Source: Podarcis liolepis (Eukaryota). From it: 64,000 nucleotides of DNA. Positions 1,176-59,990 of this stretch are shown piece after piece. The stretch lies in NCBI GenBank assembly GCA_965112155.1, contig OZ218098.1; one strand, given 5' to 3'. The first letter of the stretch is position 1, and each line of letters starts with the position of its first letter. Position numbers and translations under genes: made by a program. The notes below the pieces were generated by a model. It ran no database searches, had not been told where the DNA came from, and saw only the letters and a program-made list of their open reading frames with translations.

Positions 1176-2095
1176 TTGCTGTGTTCATCCTCTGAGCCAA
1201 AGGTAAGACCCATGTTGGCTTTTGATGCAAAAGGCTAGAAAAAGTTGAACACTGGGCAGCTGATGCTCTGACTTAGGGCAGAAGGAGTAAAAATAGTCTC
1301 CCCTGTTTCTGTCCCTTCTTCTCCCTTTCTGTCCAAAAGGATACTGGTCTGTTTTTATTGCTGCCATCATCTTCCACACAAGTCAAAGTAATCTTTCTGA
1401 AGCGCATACTTATTCATCAGCTTGCTTAATCAGAAGCTATTGTATTTTCATTAAAACGAGGAACTGTAGCCCAAAGAATCACGCTCCCCAAAGGAGGCAC
1501 AGCAATTCAGGTGCCTTAACAGTACAAGCCTATACATGTCTACTCAGATGCAAGCCTTCATGGGAATCACTTGCACATATTGGCCTGCAGGATTGATTTC
1601 AAGCAAAGGCTTGACTAACAGTGCAAGAAACCGTATCTTAGCCATGGCATTTGGCAAAGCTTCAGAAGGCACCTAACCATTTTGGAATCTGTGCTGTCCA
1701 CTTGCGATGGCCAACCTTAAAAAGGATTCTTTACATTTCCACAGAAACAGGGGTGCTTTCCCTTTTTGCCCTGTCACCCTCTTTTCAACCCCTTTCTACA
1801 TGCCCCATGGACCAGTTATCTTTAGAAGCACCTTCAGGGCGTATGTGTGTCATTAGGGAAGTGTTAGAGTAATAAATAAGAATTCAATTTTTTAAATGGA
1901 ACTCCTGAGTTATTTATGTCTCTTCAGGGACTTAGGTACCAGAAGGGTTATTACTAGCATCATAAATTTTAGATGTTTCCCTGCAGACTGTATGCTGCAG
2001 GATCTTTTGAATAAGGAGTAGAACTTGAAGATCTCAACTTGGGAGTGGAGATGCAAGTTGCTAGTTCTCATAGTTATATAACTATGACAACCCCC

Positions 2096-2817
2096 TAGAA
2101 TCATAGAGTTGGAATAGACCACAAGGGCCATCGAGTCCAACCCCCTGCCAAGCAGGAAACACCATCAGAGCACACCTGACATATGGTTGTCAAGCCTCTG
2201 CTTAAAGACCTCCAAAGTAGGAGACTCCACCACACTCCTTGGCAGCAAATTCCACTGTCAAACAGCTCTTACTGTCAGGAAGTTCTTCCTAATGTTTAGC
2301 TGGAATCTTCTTTCTTGTAGTTTGGATCCATTGCTCCGTGTCCGCTTCTCTGGAGCAGCAGAAAACAACCTTTCTCCCTCCTCTATGTGACATCCTTTTA
2401 TATATTTGAACATGGCTATCATATCACCCCTTAACCTCCTCTTCTCCAGGCTAAACATGCCCAGCTCCCTTAGCCGTTCCTCATAAGGCATCGTTTCCAG
2501 GCCTCTGACCATTTTGGTTGCCCTCCTCTGGACACGTTCCAGTTTGTCAGTGTCCTTCTTGAACTGTGGTGCCCAGAACTGGACACAGTACTCCAGGTGA
2601 GGTCTGACCAGAGTAGAATACAGTGGCACTATTACTTCCCTTGATCTAGATGCTATACTCCTATTGATGCAGCCCAGAATTGCATTGGCTTTTTTAGCTG
2701 CCGCGTCACACTGTTGGCTCATGTCAAGTTTGTGGTCAACCAAGACTCCTAGATCCTTTTCACATGTACTGCTCTCAAGCCAGGTGTCCCCCATCTTGTA
2801 TTTGTGCCTCTCATTTT
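2096..2817 (-). mobile_element. 5'-truncated young CR1 LINE (ORF2 C-terminus and 3' UTR)
   Basis: Open 178-aa ORF 2258-2794 with [22 protein letters not shown] and LEKRRLRGD, followed by an ATTCTA-type tail. Confidence 0.95.
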
Positions 2818-3039
2818 CCCTTTCATAATATGTGATCAGAAAGCAAAGGGGGAGAATTGCTAGTGGTCAAGCGTGAATATTTTTTCTTTACATGGATTAA
2901 TGGGAGCAAAGGACAAAGGGAAAGGATTTGCAGTGCAGGAAATTATGTTTTTCCCCTCTGTCTCGGGCTCTACCTCACTGCCACACAGTTGGGCACAGAG
3001 TTGCTCTCTGCTACCATCCGGCAAAGGGGAAAGGGTGCA

Positions 3040-32652: not shown

Positions 32653-32806
32653 NNNNNNNNNNNNNNNNNNNNNNNNNNNNNNNNNNNNNNNNNNNNNNNN
32701 NNNNNNNNNNNNNNNNNNNNNNNNNNNNNNNNNNNNNNNNNNNNNNNNNNNNNNNNNNNNNNNNNNNNNNNNNNNNNNNNNNNNNNNNNNNNNNNNNNNN
32801 NNNNNN
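32653..32806. other. Assembly gap (154 N)
   Basis: Run of N. Confidence 1.
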
Positions 32807-40847: not shown

Positions 40848-41228
40848 CAGAGGTCGGCAACCCGCGGCTCCGGAGCCGCATGCGGCTCTTTTACACCTTT
40901 GCCGCGGCTCCGCAGATCCTCGGGGACCCTGAGCAGAAAAGGAGAAGCGCCAGAAAGAGGAGGGGGATGGAGCTGGGCAGCCGAGCCGGGCAAAGCAAGG
41001 CAGCGGCGGCAGCGGAGCTCGAGAGGCGGCGGCTGCTGGGATGGAGGAGGAGGCGGCGGCGGCCAGAGAAGGGCTGCTGCTGCTGCTTCTGCCGCTGGAG
41101 GGAAGTTCTGCCAGGCGGCTTCACGGCTCATAGCTTCCCCCGCCCACCCAGGCCACGCTCTCCTCAGCCCCGTGCGCGAGGCACCTGAGGCGAGGGGGGA
41201 GAGAGAGCGCGCTCGAGATGGCGGGGCG

Positions 41229-41259
<31 letters not shown>

Positions 41260-41496
41260 GGGTGGCGGTGGTGCTTCGGCTGCTGGGATGGAGGAGGAGG
41301 CGGCGGCGGCGGCGGCGGCGGCGGCCAGAGAAGGGCTGCTGCTGCTGCTGCTGCTTCTGCTGCCGGAGGGAAGCTCTGCCAGGCGGCTTCACGGCTCATA
41401 GCTTCCCCCGCCCACCCAGGCCACGCTCTCCTCAGCCCCGCGCGCAAGGCACCTGAGGCGAGGGGGAGAGAGAGAGAGCGCTCGAGATGGCGGGGC

Positions 41497-41562
<66 letters not shown>

Positions 41563-42414
41563 GGCGGTGGTGCTTCGGGATCCTTTTCCGTGCCTTGCTT
41601 CTGAGTGGCTGCCGAGTTGAGGGAGAGCACCTGAGGTGAACCACAAAATGGGCCCGCCCTCCCTGTCAGGGAGGAAGGGGTGAATAACGTCAGTGACGAG
41701 GAGGGGGTCCAGAGGTAGCCAGCAGGAGAGGCGGGGGAGCACGAGAGCAATTGCAGAGGGAGGGGGGCTGTTAGGCACCAAAATCCTGCATGCGGGATTT
41801 CCCCCATTCTCTTGTGCCTATGCAATTCCTGCCCTTCTCCCTTCCCCCTCAAGATTTGCTGCAGAGACAAGCAAATGAAGAAGGGAAGAGTATTAGCTGG
41901 CATGTCCCCGGATCCCATGGAAAGCACTACAGATTCCTTTGCTTATTTTAAGTTGGCTTCAAACCTGTAATTGTGCAGGTGTATGTATGTATACATATAC
42001 ACATATAAATATTCATATCTCTTCCCTCTCACCTTCCTTTCACCCAGTTTCTCTGGCACTGGTTTATAAATGCTGCTATGTAGAAATGATGAGAAAGTTG
42101 CACCAGCAGAAGGAATGGATATGTACTGTTAGTAAAAAGAGAGGGAGTTGAACTGCAGGGAGGGACAGACACTTTTCTATGTATTAATTTGTATAATGCC
42201 CTCTTTGCACATGGTGCTTTGCAAAAAATGGATATGAGAGGTACCATACCCCTCTTTGCTATCTGAAATAGACTCAGGGAAAAGAGAGAGAATGGGGGAA
42301 GGGGAAGAATGTGTGGTTATTTACATTTGGCTTGCTTTGCGGCTCCCAGTTTTTTTTCCCCCTTCGGAAACGGGTCCAAGTGGCTCTTTTTGTCTTAAAG
42401 GTTGCAGACCCCTG
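40848..42414. mobile_element. Non-autonomous hAT (Charlie-like) transposon, 1567 bp
   Basis: TIRs CAGAGGTCGGCAACC / GGTTGCAGACCCCTG, perfect 8-bp TSD CTGTAGAA (40840-40847 / 42415-42422), subterminal GCGGCTC repeats, no transposase ORF. Confidence 0.93.
41030..41575 (+). repeat. Two-unit tandem duplication (247 bp + 299 bp) inside the hAT element
   Basis: Units start CGGCTGCTGGGATGG at 41030 and 41277. They differ mainly in microsatellite length. Confidence 0.9.
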
Positions 42415-55582: not shown

Positions 55583-56423
55583 CTGCAAAATGAACAAATA
55601 CTATCAGGAACATATGCAAAATAAAAACATATGCATATTTTGACCCAATATTCACTGGCACTTTAAGACCCAATAATTGTTATTTGTCCAGAAAACTCGA
55701 GGGAGTGTTCATACTAACAATGCACAGTCCTCTCTTTCTCATTTAAAGAACTGTACTCCAGAAATGACTGAAGCACTAGGCTAGTGATGGGGAACCTGTG
55801 ATGCTCCAGATGTTGTCGGGCTCCAAGTCACACCATCCGTTCACATGGCGAATGGAGCTTATAGGAGTCCAACAGCATCTGGAGGGGCACAGGTCCCTCA
55901 TCCCGACACTAGGCAGTCCAAAGATAAAATGAATCACATTGGGAAACAACACTGAACGCTACAGTTACGTCTCCAAGGCTTCAACTGGGGCCTTTCACTT
56001 TACAACTTAAACAGCACAGGCTCCGTGCTGAACAGCTAGGAGACCATCACAGATGCAGCCCCAGCACATGCAAAATGTGGAGGACTGTACGTGCTGCATG
56101 GGCACATCTGATCCCAAAATAAGTCTCATGCAGATTTGTCCTAAATTAGCTCATTACCATTATTTGAGTCACTGAGTAGCTCATCAGCACCCTCCACACA
56201 CACGCACACAAAAGAAATGATGAAGAACAGCAAAGCAGCAAAAATCCAAAAACCTTATCCACCATTTGATGACACAAAGAGCATTTCATCACCTCATTTT
56301 AAAGAAAGATGGAAAGAGAAATTTAAGCAACCATGAAGTCGTATATGGGTAGCAACAAGAGAGTTAAAAAATTAAGTCTTGCAAATATGCTATGGGCAGG
56401 AAACAGAAATGCCAGTTTCTTAC

Positions 56424-56562
56424 CAGTAACAATTACAGAATGTCCTCCTCCTCCAGTAATACTTGTGATGTTCTTCTGACTGCAGGGCAATTCTTTAAGG
56501 GCCTGGGGCAGGAGTACATCTTCTTTATGACCAAGACCCAGTTGTCCATAGCTGTTTGCTCC
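56424..56562 (-). CDS. SERGEF: SERGEF exon 2 (GANSYGQLGLGHKEDVLLPQALKELPCSQKNITSITGGGGHSVIVT)
   Basis: RCC1 repeat signature. TAG acceptor, G|GTAAG donor, 139 nt. Not in the ORF track. Confidence 0.96.
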
Positions 56563-56975
56563 CTAAGGACATAAGAAAAGCCCTGCTGAGTCAGAACAAA
56601 GGCCTATCTAGCCCAGCATCCTCTTCTCACAGGGGCCAACCAGTTTCGTATAGGAAGCCCAGAAGCAGGACCTGAGGACAGCAGCAGTCTCCACACTCCT
56701 GATTCCCAGCAATTGGTATGGAAGCATCCTGTCCCCGACAGTAGAGGTAGAGCATAGCCATGATGGCATGATAGCTTTGTCCAAACATCTTTTAAAGCCA
56801 TCCAGGTTGGTGATCATTGCTACAACCTGTGGGGATGAATTCCATATGTACTGCATGATAAAATACTTCATTTTGTCTGTCCTGAATCTTCTAACATTCA
56901 GCTTCATTAGATGGCCTCGAGTTCTAGTATGAGAGAAGGAGGAAAAATCTCCCTATCTACTCTCTCCACATCATG
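56563..56975 (-). mobile_element. Old CR1 LINE 3' end abutting SERGEF exon 2
   Basis: MKLNVRRFRTDKMKYF...WNSSPQ.VA....LDGFKRCLDK is the CR1 ORF2 end. The 3' UTR ends GATGCTGGGCTAGATAGGCC...CTGACTCAGCAGGGCTTTTCTTATGTCCTTA. Confidence 0.85.
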
Positions 56976-58973
56976 CAGATTCTGGTCTGCATGTTGTTGC
57001 ATTGAAAGGAAATCCTTAAAGTTTAATGGTATGAGCAGTGGAAGTACTGAGACCCAAACACTCTTTTTATTAAAAAAAATCAATAAGGATGAAAAAGTAA
57101 TTAATTGAAATTATACATGGAAGGAGACTTGCCTGAAGCAATTCTAACTGTTGCACTATCTTGCAAAGGATTTGACATAATCAGCACAAGTGTAGCATCA
57201 GAAAGATTTTTTTTTTTTTTACAGCAGTCCTGTACACTTCTGTCCTTTGCAGCTGAGGATTTTACAGTCTCCTGGACTCAGGAAGTCAATGGTGAAAATC
57301 AGTCTAGACCTTATTGTAACATAAATCTCATTAGAACCACTAGCCTTTGGGCTTTCTCCCCTGGGAGACGAGCTCTATCTTTTAAGATTCTTGCCAATGG
57401 CACTTTTGAATGGCTAAGTATATGTGCATTTCATATTCAACTACCCCCCCCCCCAAGTTGGAAGCATAAAACTGGCAGGCATCTGTTCGATCTGGCTGTT
57501 ACTTGGAAGCAAGTCACATCAATTTCATTGAAAGGTACTTCTGAAAAATAATTTCAGGATCCAATACACATATATTTTACAACATCCATCCATGACTTTT
57601 ACAATGAAATGTCATTATGTGTTATCCAGCAAGACAAATCTTGGCCACCTTGGGGCATTTCCATATGTCATCCTAAGAAGTATTTCTGAAGTCATATAAA
57701 TGCTGCTAATGAGATATAATTTGGAAGTGGGGAAAACATATGCACATCCCAGCCATCTCAGGTTTTGCATATGTCTTCAGGGCCAACTTTTTTTTTTAAA
57801 GCTGATTTAAGCCTGTCTGCAAAGTTTCATATCTGATACAGAAAAACTGTTTAATAAGAACTACAAGTCTTAACAGCTTGCTTTGACATGTGGTTATAAT
57901 CCTGGCTTTTTTTGCACATTGAGAAATATTTATGCTCTCTGAAACAGACTAGCTGCTCAAAGAGTAGAATAGAAAGCATTATATCCTGTAATATTTAGCC
58001 TTATTGGACAGCTGTGGCATGTGTGCAAACATGAAGTTAAAGCTAAGGAGGCAATGCTCAAAACTCTTTACCATTTCAATTCAGTTTCCTCAGCTCCACC
58101 AGAATTATACCTAGGCATGTCACATGCATTACTTATAGTAATGGCATTGGGACAAGACTTTAGGGCATACACCAATTCAGCAGAATGAGGAGGACCCTGA
58201 AACACAAGGCTGGCTAGCCACATTTTTAAGTGATGTAATGCACATTGCCATCTATTTATATTTCATCTGTCTGACAAGATCAAGGTGGCACACGGTCTTC
58301 CCCTTCACTAATTTATTTTAACAGCAACCCTGTAGATTAGGATGTGAAATGGTGGTCAGATCTTATTGGAATACTCGCCTAACAACTACAACAAGTGGGC
58401 AGGGACAGACAGCCGTGCTTAATTATTAAATTGGAGAATTTATCCATAAATCCATCTCGGATGACTTAGAAGCTCCATTCTCCACAATGCATGGATATTA
58501 GCTAGGGTTAGGGGACTCACACCCCCAGAGACATGCTGCTGTTTATACCTCGAAGTTCTAAGGGCAAATAAAAATGGCCTCTACTGTGGCGGATGGACAG
58601 ACACCAAGGCCTAGAAAACATTTTAATCACTCCCCACAAGCCATGGGCAAACGAACCAGGATGGGAGGGCCATGAAAATCAGAAGACACTTCCATCCCTG
58701 GGCAACAGGGAGCAGCATTGGCTTAAACACCTTATGGGGATCCAAGATTCACTTGAGTCATCTGAAAGGTCCTCCTCTCAGCAGGTGTGTCCTTCTTGGT
58801 GCTTGAGGGGTGTCTAAAGTGGATTTAAAACATAAACAAAGTTCCTAGTTCACGCTTGTGAACAATGGGCTCTGCTGTCTTCCCTGCAAGCAGAAGCTTA
58901 TGCCTTTCGAAACAGCGTGACTCAACAACAGGTTTAGCTCTTCCAAGTGAGAGAATCTGGCATGCCATATGCA

Positions 58974-59419: not shown

Positions 59420-59990
59420 GGTACCAAACAGCAAATCCGACTAGCGCCTTGCATATTTCGACGGGTCCTTTCAGAGACGGGGGTTTGCCAATAACATCCG
59501 TCAGGGGCGGTGGAAGCGGAGAGGGAGGCTGGTGCGATGTGTGTGGGGAAACCATGTCAACAGCTCGATTCGGGCTCAGAGCAGCGCCGCCGGAGCCCGT
59601 GAAACTTATTTGCAGAGGACCAACGCATCATCATCCCACCCGACCAGCAGTAAGGAGCAAAGGGCGGCCTCGCTCCGTTCTTCCTACCCCCCCCCCCGCC
59701 CCGCCCGCCCGCCCGCCCGCCCGCCGCATATGCCCGTAGGACGACCGCTTCCGCCCTTTTCCGGGCACCGACGCAGGAACTTACCCAAGCGAACAGCGCC
59801 TGGGTCGGCTCCTCGCGCACGGCGTCCATAACGTCGCAAAAGAGGAGGAGCCACTCCCGGAAGCAGCCATGGATCTCGCCTCAGGCCGCCCGCACTGACA
59901 TCAGATGTGGGCGTGGTCGGCGTTTCCCCGCACCTTTGTAGTCGGGCTCTGATTAGTGGAAGCGGAAATACCGCGCACCTTTTTGGCTTG
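59420..59990 (-). promoter_or_regulatory. CpG island and TATA-less promoter of SERGEF
   Basis: Sharp rise in CpG and GC content around the start codon. ETS-type CCGGAAG (~59857) and tandem GGAAGCGGAAAT (~59958), plus a GC-box array (GGGC)n at 59697-59725. Confidence 0.85.
59785..59829 (-). CDS. SERGEF: SERGEF coding exon 1 (MDAVREEPTQALFAW)
   Basis: ATG in GTTATGG context inside the CpG island. ALFAW followed by donor GTAAGT. Phase 0. Confidence 0.9.

Follow-up and report, generated by a model that had tools for sequence, protein, structure and literature searches.

Retroposons that lie beside acceptors are usually purged, and the contributions that they are known to make to splicing mostly create new exons. 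The locus studied here raises the question of how an old coding exon can come to stand directly behind the end of a LINE. In the window, by which we mean the whole 64,000-nt stretch analysed (G000:C1:72602001-72666000), intron 1 of SERGEF ends ...CTGACTCAGCAGGGCTTTTCTTATGTCCTTAG at 56563 and exon 2 starts at 56562; sequence, boundary and coordinates are as a previous sequence-only reading had given them. That reading proposed that a CR1 LINE had landed next to an ancestral exon, displaced its branch point and pyrimidine tract, and supplied replacements from its own tail. We favour, with a probability of about three in four, an interpretation in which an old sense-oriented CR1 tail ends at the A of the exon-2 acceptor and has likely replaced the older branch point and pyrimidine tract.

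SERGEF exon 2 and its boundary

SERGEF lies on the minus strand, with the coding part of exon 1 at 59785..59829 (ending in phase 0, W|G), exon 2 at 56424..56562 and further exons to about 36438 within the window. Exon 2 is a coding exon of 139 nt that starts GANSYGQLGLGHKEDV... and is followed by GT at 56423. It encodes an RCC1 repeat (Pfam RCC1 domain, E 1.7e-9), and its peptide is 100% identical to SERGEF of Podarcis raffonei, 98% to that of Zootoca and 85% to that of Rhineura, which points to a lacertid lizard. The exon is single copy in the genome and its best protein matches are SERGEF; no paralogue or pseudogene retaining the old acceptor was found, with one match among 7 genome candidates.

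The point at which the upstream exon joins exon 2 is conserved far beyond lizards. The motif GANSYG is present in 307 of 313 SERGEF proteins examined and is preceded by W in 251 of these 307, while the proteins that lack the W have other N-termini, all joined at the G of GANSYG, or start at the motif; W|GANSYG is found in coelacanth and tailed frog proteins as well. The claim that this exon is an ancestral RCC1 repeat is thus borne out by the Pfam match and by a boundary kept across the tetrapod and coelacanth proteins examined, and these protein sequences give good support to the view that both exon 2 and its boundary are older than the LINE.

The annotations of Podarcis, Lacerta and Zootoca, which are predicted models, splice exon 1 to GANSYG, and those of Podarcis and Lacerta splice two further donors to it. 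The corresponding alternative upstream exon ends lie on the minus strand at 59425..59454 (annotated in Podarcis, MQGASRICCL) and at 58657..58695 (annotated in Podarcis and Lacerta, MEVSSDFHGPPIL), and both join the exon-2 acceptor. All three annotated donors were located in the window, each with GT after it; those of the two alternative first coding exons are non-consensus GT donors. Because alternative first exons converge on one acceptor, in predicted models rather than in reads, this acceptor appears to be in use.

Several other features were recorded in and around the gene. Aromatic amino acid hydroxylase exons, probably of TPH1 by synteny, stand directly upstream of SERGEF (G000:C1:72664791-72670296, minus) and overlap the final 1.2 kb of the window. 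A SERGEF intron holds a GC-rich tandem duplication of about 250-300 nt at 40850-41600, containing runs of (GGC)n, (GCT)n and (GA)n, whose start looks like a hAT-type transposon end. A stretch of 154 N bases occupies 32653-32806, distant from the exon-2 acceptor.

The CR1 tail and its predicted signals

The sequence before exon 2 is a 5'-truncated CR1-clade LINE of about 415 nt (56564..56979, minus strand, in sense to SERGEF) that comprises the end of ORF2 and the 3' UTR. When the 198-nt piece before the acceptor was compared with the genome, 4010 candidate matches were found, and among the 40 scored, 39 were other copies with 74-83% identity, belonging to an interspersed family of 5'-truncated copies with a common 3' end. 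The C-terminus encoded by the window ORF at 2258-2866, which we take to be CR1 ORF2, matches longer copies of this family with E 4e-14 and 3e-16, and the SERGEF copy itself with E 0.02. The proposal that some 400 nt before the acceptor are a sense CR1 3' end therefore holds, with LINE similarity running from about 56979 to 56564 and the clade given by the ORF2 match of the longer copies. The ORF used in this comparison is part of a young CR1 of another family (window 2094-2866, minus), with an almost intact ORF2 C-terminus and at most 98.7% identity to other copies.

The SERGEF copy is of typical age for its family, diverging from the family majority by 17% (71 of 415 sites; K2P 0.20) against a median of 18% and a range of 11-29% among 96 copies, and its insertion is inferred to predate the split of Podarcis, Lacerta and Zootoca. 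It retains the 8-nt microsatellite tail at its 3' end, preceded by the site of the CR1 3' hairpin at 56586..56617 (minus), a layout of hairpin plus octamer that is typical of amniote CR1 (PMC8665684). The family-majority hairpin folds with high pairing probability, whereas the inner stem is weakened in the decayed SERGEF copy, which folds no better than shuffled sequences (z -0.18). No target-site duplication above chance was detected in the 58 copies checked, namely the SERGEF LINE and 57 other old ones; CR1 target duplications peak at 3-5 bp (PMC4245944).

The end of the LINE could be placed to the base. When 29 other genomic copies are aligned with it, the family majority holds up to position -2, where 22 of 29 have A; from -1 onwards the bases are random, with G in 3 of 29. 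Genome-wide, exact tails end in TTAG in 28 of 255 cases and in TTAH in the other 227, with no hits for reversed-pattern controls. In the acceptor AG (56563..56564, minus) the A is consequently the final LINE base and the G is not LINE-encoded; most simply, it would come from the host. Apart from this G, the final 30 intron bases all belong to the LINE tail, and no part of the LINE lies in the exon. The tail had been described as running straight into the acceptor, which is correct through the A of the AG, where the CR1 alignment ends rather than more than 30 nt before it, but not for the final G. Since LINE similarity stops at -2 and the exon is host sequence, this is not a case of transposon exonisation.

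At this intron end we find the features of a U2-type acceptor: a TAG end, a pyrimidine tract and a yUnAy motif within 20-50 nt, the usual range of branch points (PMC7349775). The tract at 56565..56580 (minus) is the microsatellite tail itself, with 14 of 16 pyrimidines (14 of 18 over -20 to -3). The predicted branch point CTGAC lies at 56590..56594 (minus) in the 3' arm of the CR1 hairpin, with its A at 56591, and is the sole yUnAy match between -18 and -70; the family majority has CTGAT at this site. The motif noticed earlier is therefore present inside the CR1, its A now being numbered -29, and its function as a branch point is a prediction.

It is unlikely, though to be taken seriously, that this LINE-built acceptor works with another branch point, be it a non-consensus LINE A, several As or a distant site. 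Two AGs, at -24 and -21, stand between A-29 and the acceptor (5 and 8 nt past the A), and 77% of human branch-to-acceptor intervals are free of any AG (PMC4315302); CTGAC moreover sits in a hairpin arm that is predicted to be partly paired. The status of CTGAC as the only consensus match at a usual distance argues for A-29 instead. Splicing to the AG at -24 or -21 would shift the reading frame and bring in a stop. AGs very near behind a branch point are usually skipped.

Relative to the family majority the last 30 LINE bases of the tail carry 4 changes (13%), all from pyrimidine to pyrimidine, which is not exceptional beside 17.5% in the body of the LINE. The SERGEF copy retains the branch motif, the unbroken tract and the TA end together, which none of 29 copies selected on the LINE body does; this post hoc comparison is no more than suggestive, as some of the 29 may have lost their 3' end. 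A compensatory change in the hairpin that would make CTGAC the mark of a subfamily was considered and found weak, a G/C pair occurring in 4 copies and A/C in 16.

These observations suggest a simple course of events. The 3' end of this CR1 family offers, in this order, a branch-point motif, a spacer, a pyrimidine-rich octamer and TTA, and insertion before a host G would create a TAG acceptor precisely where the exon already began. The insertion could then be fixed because the old boundary was kept and the protein was unchanged, and an ancient exon would now be spliced with signals supplied by a LINE. Landing near an acceptor is probably a matter of chance; survival there is what the tail explains. 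Use of this AG, branching at A-29, displacement of older signals and purifying selection on the tail are all things that we infer.

Possible traces of an older acceptor

If the LINE replaced earlier signals, relatives without it might still show them. The first residues are YFVPSLTFFQ|GANSYG in a 5'-partial rattlesnake (Crotalus) model and MFFFCAHLK|GANSYG in one from a thrush; before the same G, a lemming model reads ...FFCVVFYPQ, emu MYLK, turtle MSSK and gecko MK. The rattlesnake, thrush and lemming N-termini seem to be intron read-through, that is, pyrimidine tracts ending in CAG or AAG, although in these predicted gene models the K or Q may equally be the end of an upstream exon. Against the snake peptide the last 30 nt of the window intron have 15 mismatches, and 22% of intron positions do as well. 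If the read-through interpretation is right, the snake acceptor seems to differ and to be non-LINE. An AAG acceptor general to amniotes was considered and dropped, as the snake and lemming models end in Q. The proposed displacement of the old branch point and pyrimidine tract thus gains from the different, non-LINE tract that the rattlesnake model seems to show, and the LINE most likely replaced both.

These models also bear on a different and improbable account, in which the host's old acceptor survives as the final 7-10 bases of the intron. Insertion would then have been primed by pairing of the LINE RNA tail with this look-alike stretch, and the LINE would contribute just the branch point and some of the tract. 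The emu and turtle models imply ATG-TMY-TYN-AAG, which is octamer-like; the window has C at -6 where the family majority has T; and host bases remain after the tail at the two further genes described below. The C at -6 is, however, a common LINE variant (6 of 29 copies; 5 of 28 TTAG tails). The bird and turtle ends are 2 nt longer and read AAG, and the snake end reads CAG, so neither is TAG, and the window end fits the outgroup peptides poorly (score 20, where the best sites reach 12-14).

A displaced acceptor had been expected near 56980. We searched for it and none could be secured: an AAG at 57015 ranks 5 of 209 AG sites and is unconvincing, and a CAG at 56987 ranks lower still. Metagenome contigs were tried as an outgroup and yielded 47 loci, all of them distant RCC1 relatives of at most 63% identity and so unsuitable for that purpose. 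Two candidate traces were noted 5' of the LINE, both as leads. The first, a possible displaced branch point and T-rich tract at 57069..57105 (minus), about 90 nt from the LINE, shares first place in intron 1 when the rattlesnake intron end is back-translated and compared (9 mismatches in 30, with 0.1 expected over 156 positions), and the acceptor of the unrelated exon 8 scores equally. The second is a possible 21-nt relic of exon 2 at 57001..57021 (minus), matching a squamate profile at 17 of 21 positions, with p about 0.01-0.05 using squamate profiles and no significance using the window's own exon.

Taken together, the two traces would fit a target duplication of about 90 nt, after which the former acceptor, together with the start of exon 2, decayed 5' of the LINE while the intact exon took the new acceptor. 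A TTAAT motif, a T-rich stretch at 57100-57070 and then the match to the exon-2 codons for LKEFPCN at 57021-57001 follow one another, the score of the relic is reached by 1 of 150 shuffles and 0 of 115 flank controls, and LINE target alterations include a recognised class of duplications above 20 bp (PMC4245944). We nevertheless hold a long duplication to be quite unlikely. With the window's own exon 43 of 150 shuffles score as well, the relic is absent among 21 nhmmer matches, and collinearity requires three indels in 70 nt, more than in the LINE itself; the region was picked by eye, and such a length is far from the 3-5 bp peak.

Recurrence at two further genes

The sequence-only reading had suggested that the CR1 tail is a portable 3' splice site. 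We located 287 unique tails in the genome, including that of SERGEF, and 14 more later, and searched with Pfam the open frames of at least about 20 residues behind every AG that lies no more than 30 nt from a tail; one batch comprised 71 of 74 frames and another 61 of 62, the remainder being repeats. The sensitivity of this search is about half at best, as it found 3 of the 6 other in-frame SERGEF exons. With SERGEF excluded, 2 of 300 tails stand before a Pfam-detectable coding exon, one in tyrosine hydroxylase (TH), at a distance of 11 nt, and one, at about 27 nt, in a PDILT-like gene. Among the tails that end in TTAG, 117 others were examined and no such exon follows any of them; they are 27 of 27 sites, 89 more taken from the first 100 entries of a list of 182, and a single additional one. 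Some weak matches after tails were set aside: POTRA_3 (0.051), DCAF15 (0.071) and VOMI (0.005) were taken as chance, and TB (0.008) was rejected for low complexity and the lack of a donor.

At TH the tail (G000:C1:74264654-74264684, plus) is followed by 11 nt and the acceptor. The LINE piece at this locus (G000:C1:74264470-74264694, plus) is about 215 nt long, 20% diverged and of the same family as that at SERGEF. The exon is identified by Pfam (E 3.5e-17) and by tyrosine hydroxylase as best PDB match (E 1.9e-19); it belongs to a single plus-strand gene with the catalytic exons in order, and the exon before it, ending TG|GT, has the phase that fits. Part of the 11 nt may represent another degenerate octamer. 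Elsewhere, aromatic amino acid hydroxylase exons occur as two sets in tandem within 46 kb (G000:C11:24386968-24432785, minus), which suggests a duplicated gene pair.

In the PDILT-like gene the tail (G000:C15:14462216-14462240, plus; locus 14462216-14462271) belongs to a LINE piece of about 250 nt that is 18% diverged. The exon has 138 nt and phase 0, its best solved relative is PDILT, and thioredoxin-fold exons flank it on the same strand in a-b-b'-a' order. A C-rich host tract is kept after the tail, and the sole branch motifs are those of the LINE. The share contributed by the LINE would thus range from all but the G at SERGEF, through all but a few bases at TH, to probably the branch point alone at the PDILT-like exon. 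In these two genes the octamer's CTTAT (-20 at TH, -34 at the PDILT-like exon), with no AG behind it, is a better branch candidate than CTGAC (-39 and -53), which also speaks for a branch point other than A-29 at SERGEF.

Two cases in 300 are modestly above chance. With 180,000-220,000 acceptors assumed, 0.26-0.63 cases are expected per 300 tails (p 0.03-0.13), and this expectation is an upper bound, since sense LINEs adjoining acceptors are depleted in mammals (PMC3088655). All three genes carry the tail variant CTGAC...GGG, found before an exon in 2 of 45 tails of this class and in 0 of 255 others with SERGEF excluded (p 0.022 by Fisher's test; for the 45 taken alone, p 0.001-0.004 under a Poisson model), a class that was defined post hoc. 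Pure chance without selection, with CTGAC...GGG marking a subfamily or the sampling, falls somewhat short of even odds in our judgement. It is favoured by the small excess, by the presence of CTGAC in 7 of 58 exact tails, by several search patterns having been shaped on the SERGEF tail, and by the outcome for fresh copies of the variant, 0 of 14 of which precede a detectable exon (15 further matches were listed, some in the earlier set). Against it stand the comparisons within the class, the depletion in mammals and the fact that TH first emerged from a search pattern that admitted CTGAC and CTGAT alike.

Takeover of acceptors by the CR1 tail has therefore likely happened more than once, the tail recurring near exons of two more genes, but the counts (2 of 300, and 0 of 14 prospectively) lend no support to a frequent or clearly selected process. 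We regard it as doubtful that the tail is a pre-adapted portable signal at the ancient exons of dozens or more lacertid genes, with CTGAC favoured where it is used. If this were true, LINEs would routinely feed the turnover of splice signals at constitutive exons, and sense tails should be enriched and conserved just before acceptors genome-wide. As it is, three unrelated genes in a single genome, tyrosine hydroxylase among them, appear to have had the 3' splice signals of an old coding exon replaced by the tail of one LINE family. The three insertions amount to dated natural experiments in which branch point and pyrimidine tract turn over while the exons stay fixed, and they are good presence/absence markers for lacertoid phylogeny.

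Comparison with known systems

Sense LINEs close to acceptors, at less than 50 bp from an exon, are depleted (PMC3088655), and squamate CR1s are mostly truncated and on average far from exons (PMC11303007). The SERGEF, TH and PDILT-like copies are exceptions inside this depleted zone, and tails that rebuild an acceptor are not described in the parts of these two papers available to us. Our literature search, mainly of openly accessible papers, listed no report of SERGEF with CR1 or of an existing exon whose acceptor signals were taken over by a LINE tail. In kind, the mechanism is known from the merle SINE and from Alu branch points, and recurrence in three genes adds interest.

The closest parallel is canine merle, in which a SINEC_Cf element lies at the boundary of PMEL intron 10 and exon 11 (PMC7349775). 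There, as here, a retroposon stands at the 3' splice site of an existing exon, its tail serves as pyrimidine tract and the original acceptor position is still usable. The merle element, as that paper describes it, contributes an antisense poly(A), is young, polymorphic and often harmful, and keeps the host branch point and acceptor, with a 15-bp duplication, whereas the SERGEF insertion is a sense LINE tail, old and apparently fixed, from which the likely branch point, the pyrimidine tract and the first acceptor base all come. With the branch points of exonised inverted Alus (PMC4315302) our case shares a repeat consensus that holds a branch motif beside a pyrimidine tract; those signals create new exons, whereas the SERGEF LINE serves an ancient coding exon in which no base comes from the repeat. 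The exons derived from CR1 and L2 in mammals are likewise reported as exonisations, mostly cassette exons (PMC2394776, PMC6108849), and in contrast to them the SERGEF case is one of signal replacement at a pre-existing exon.
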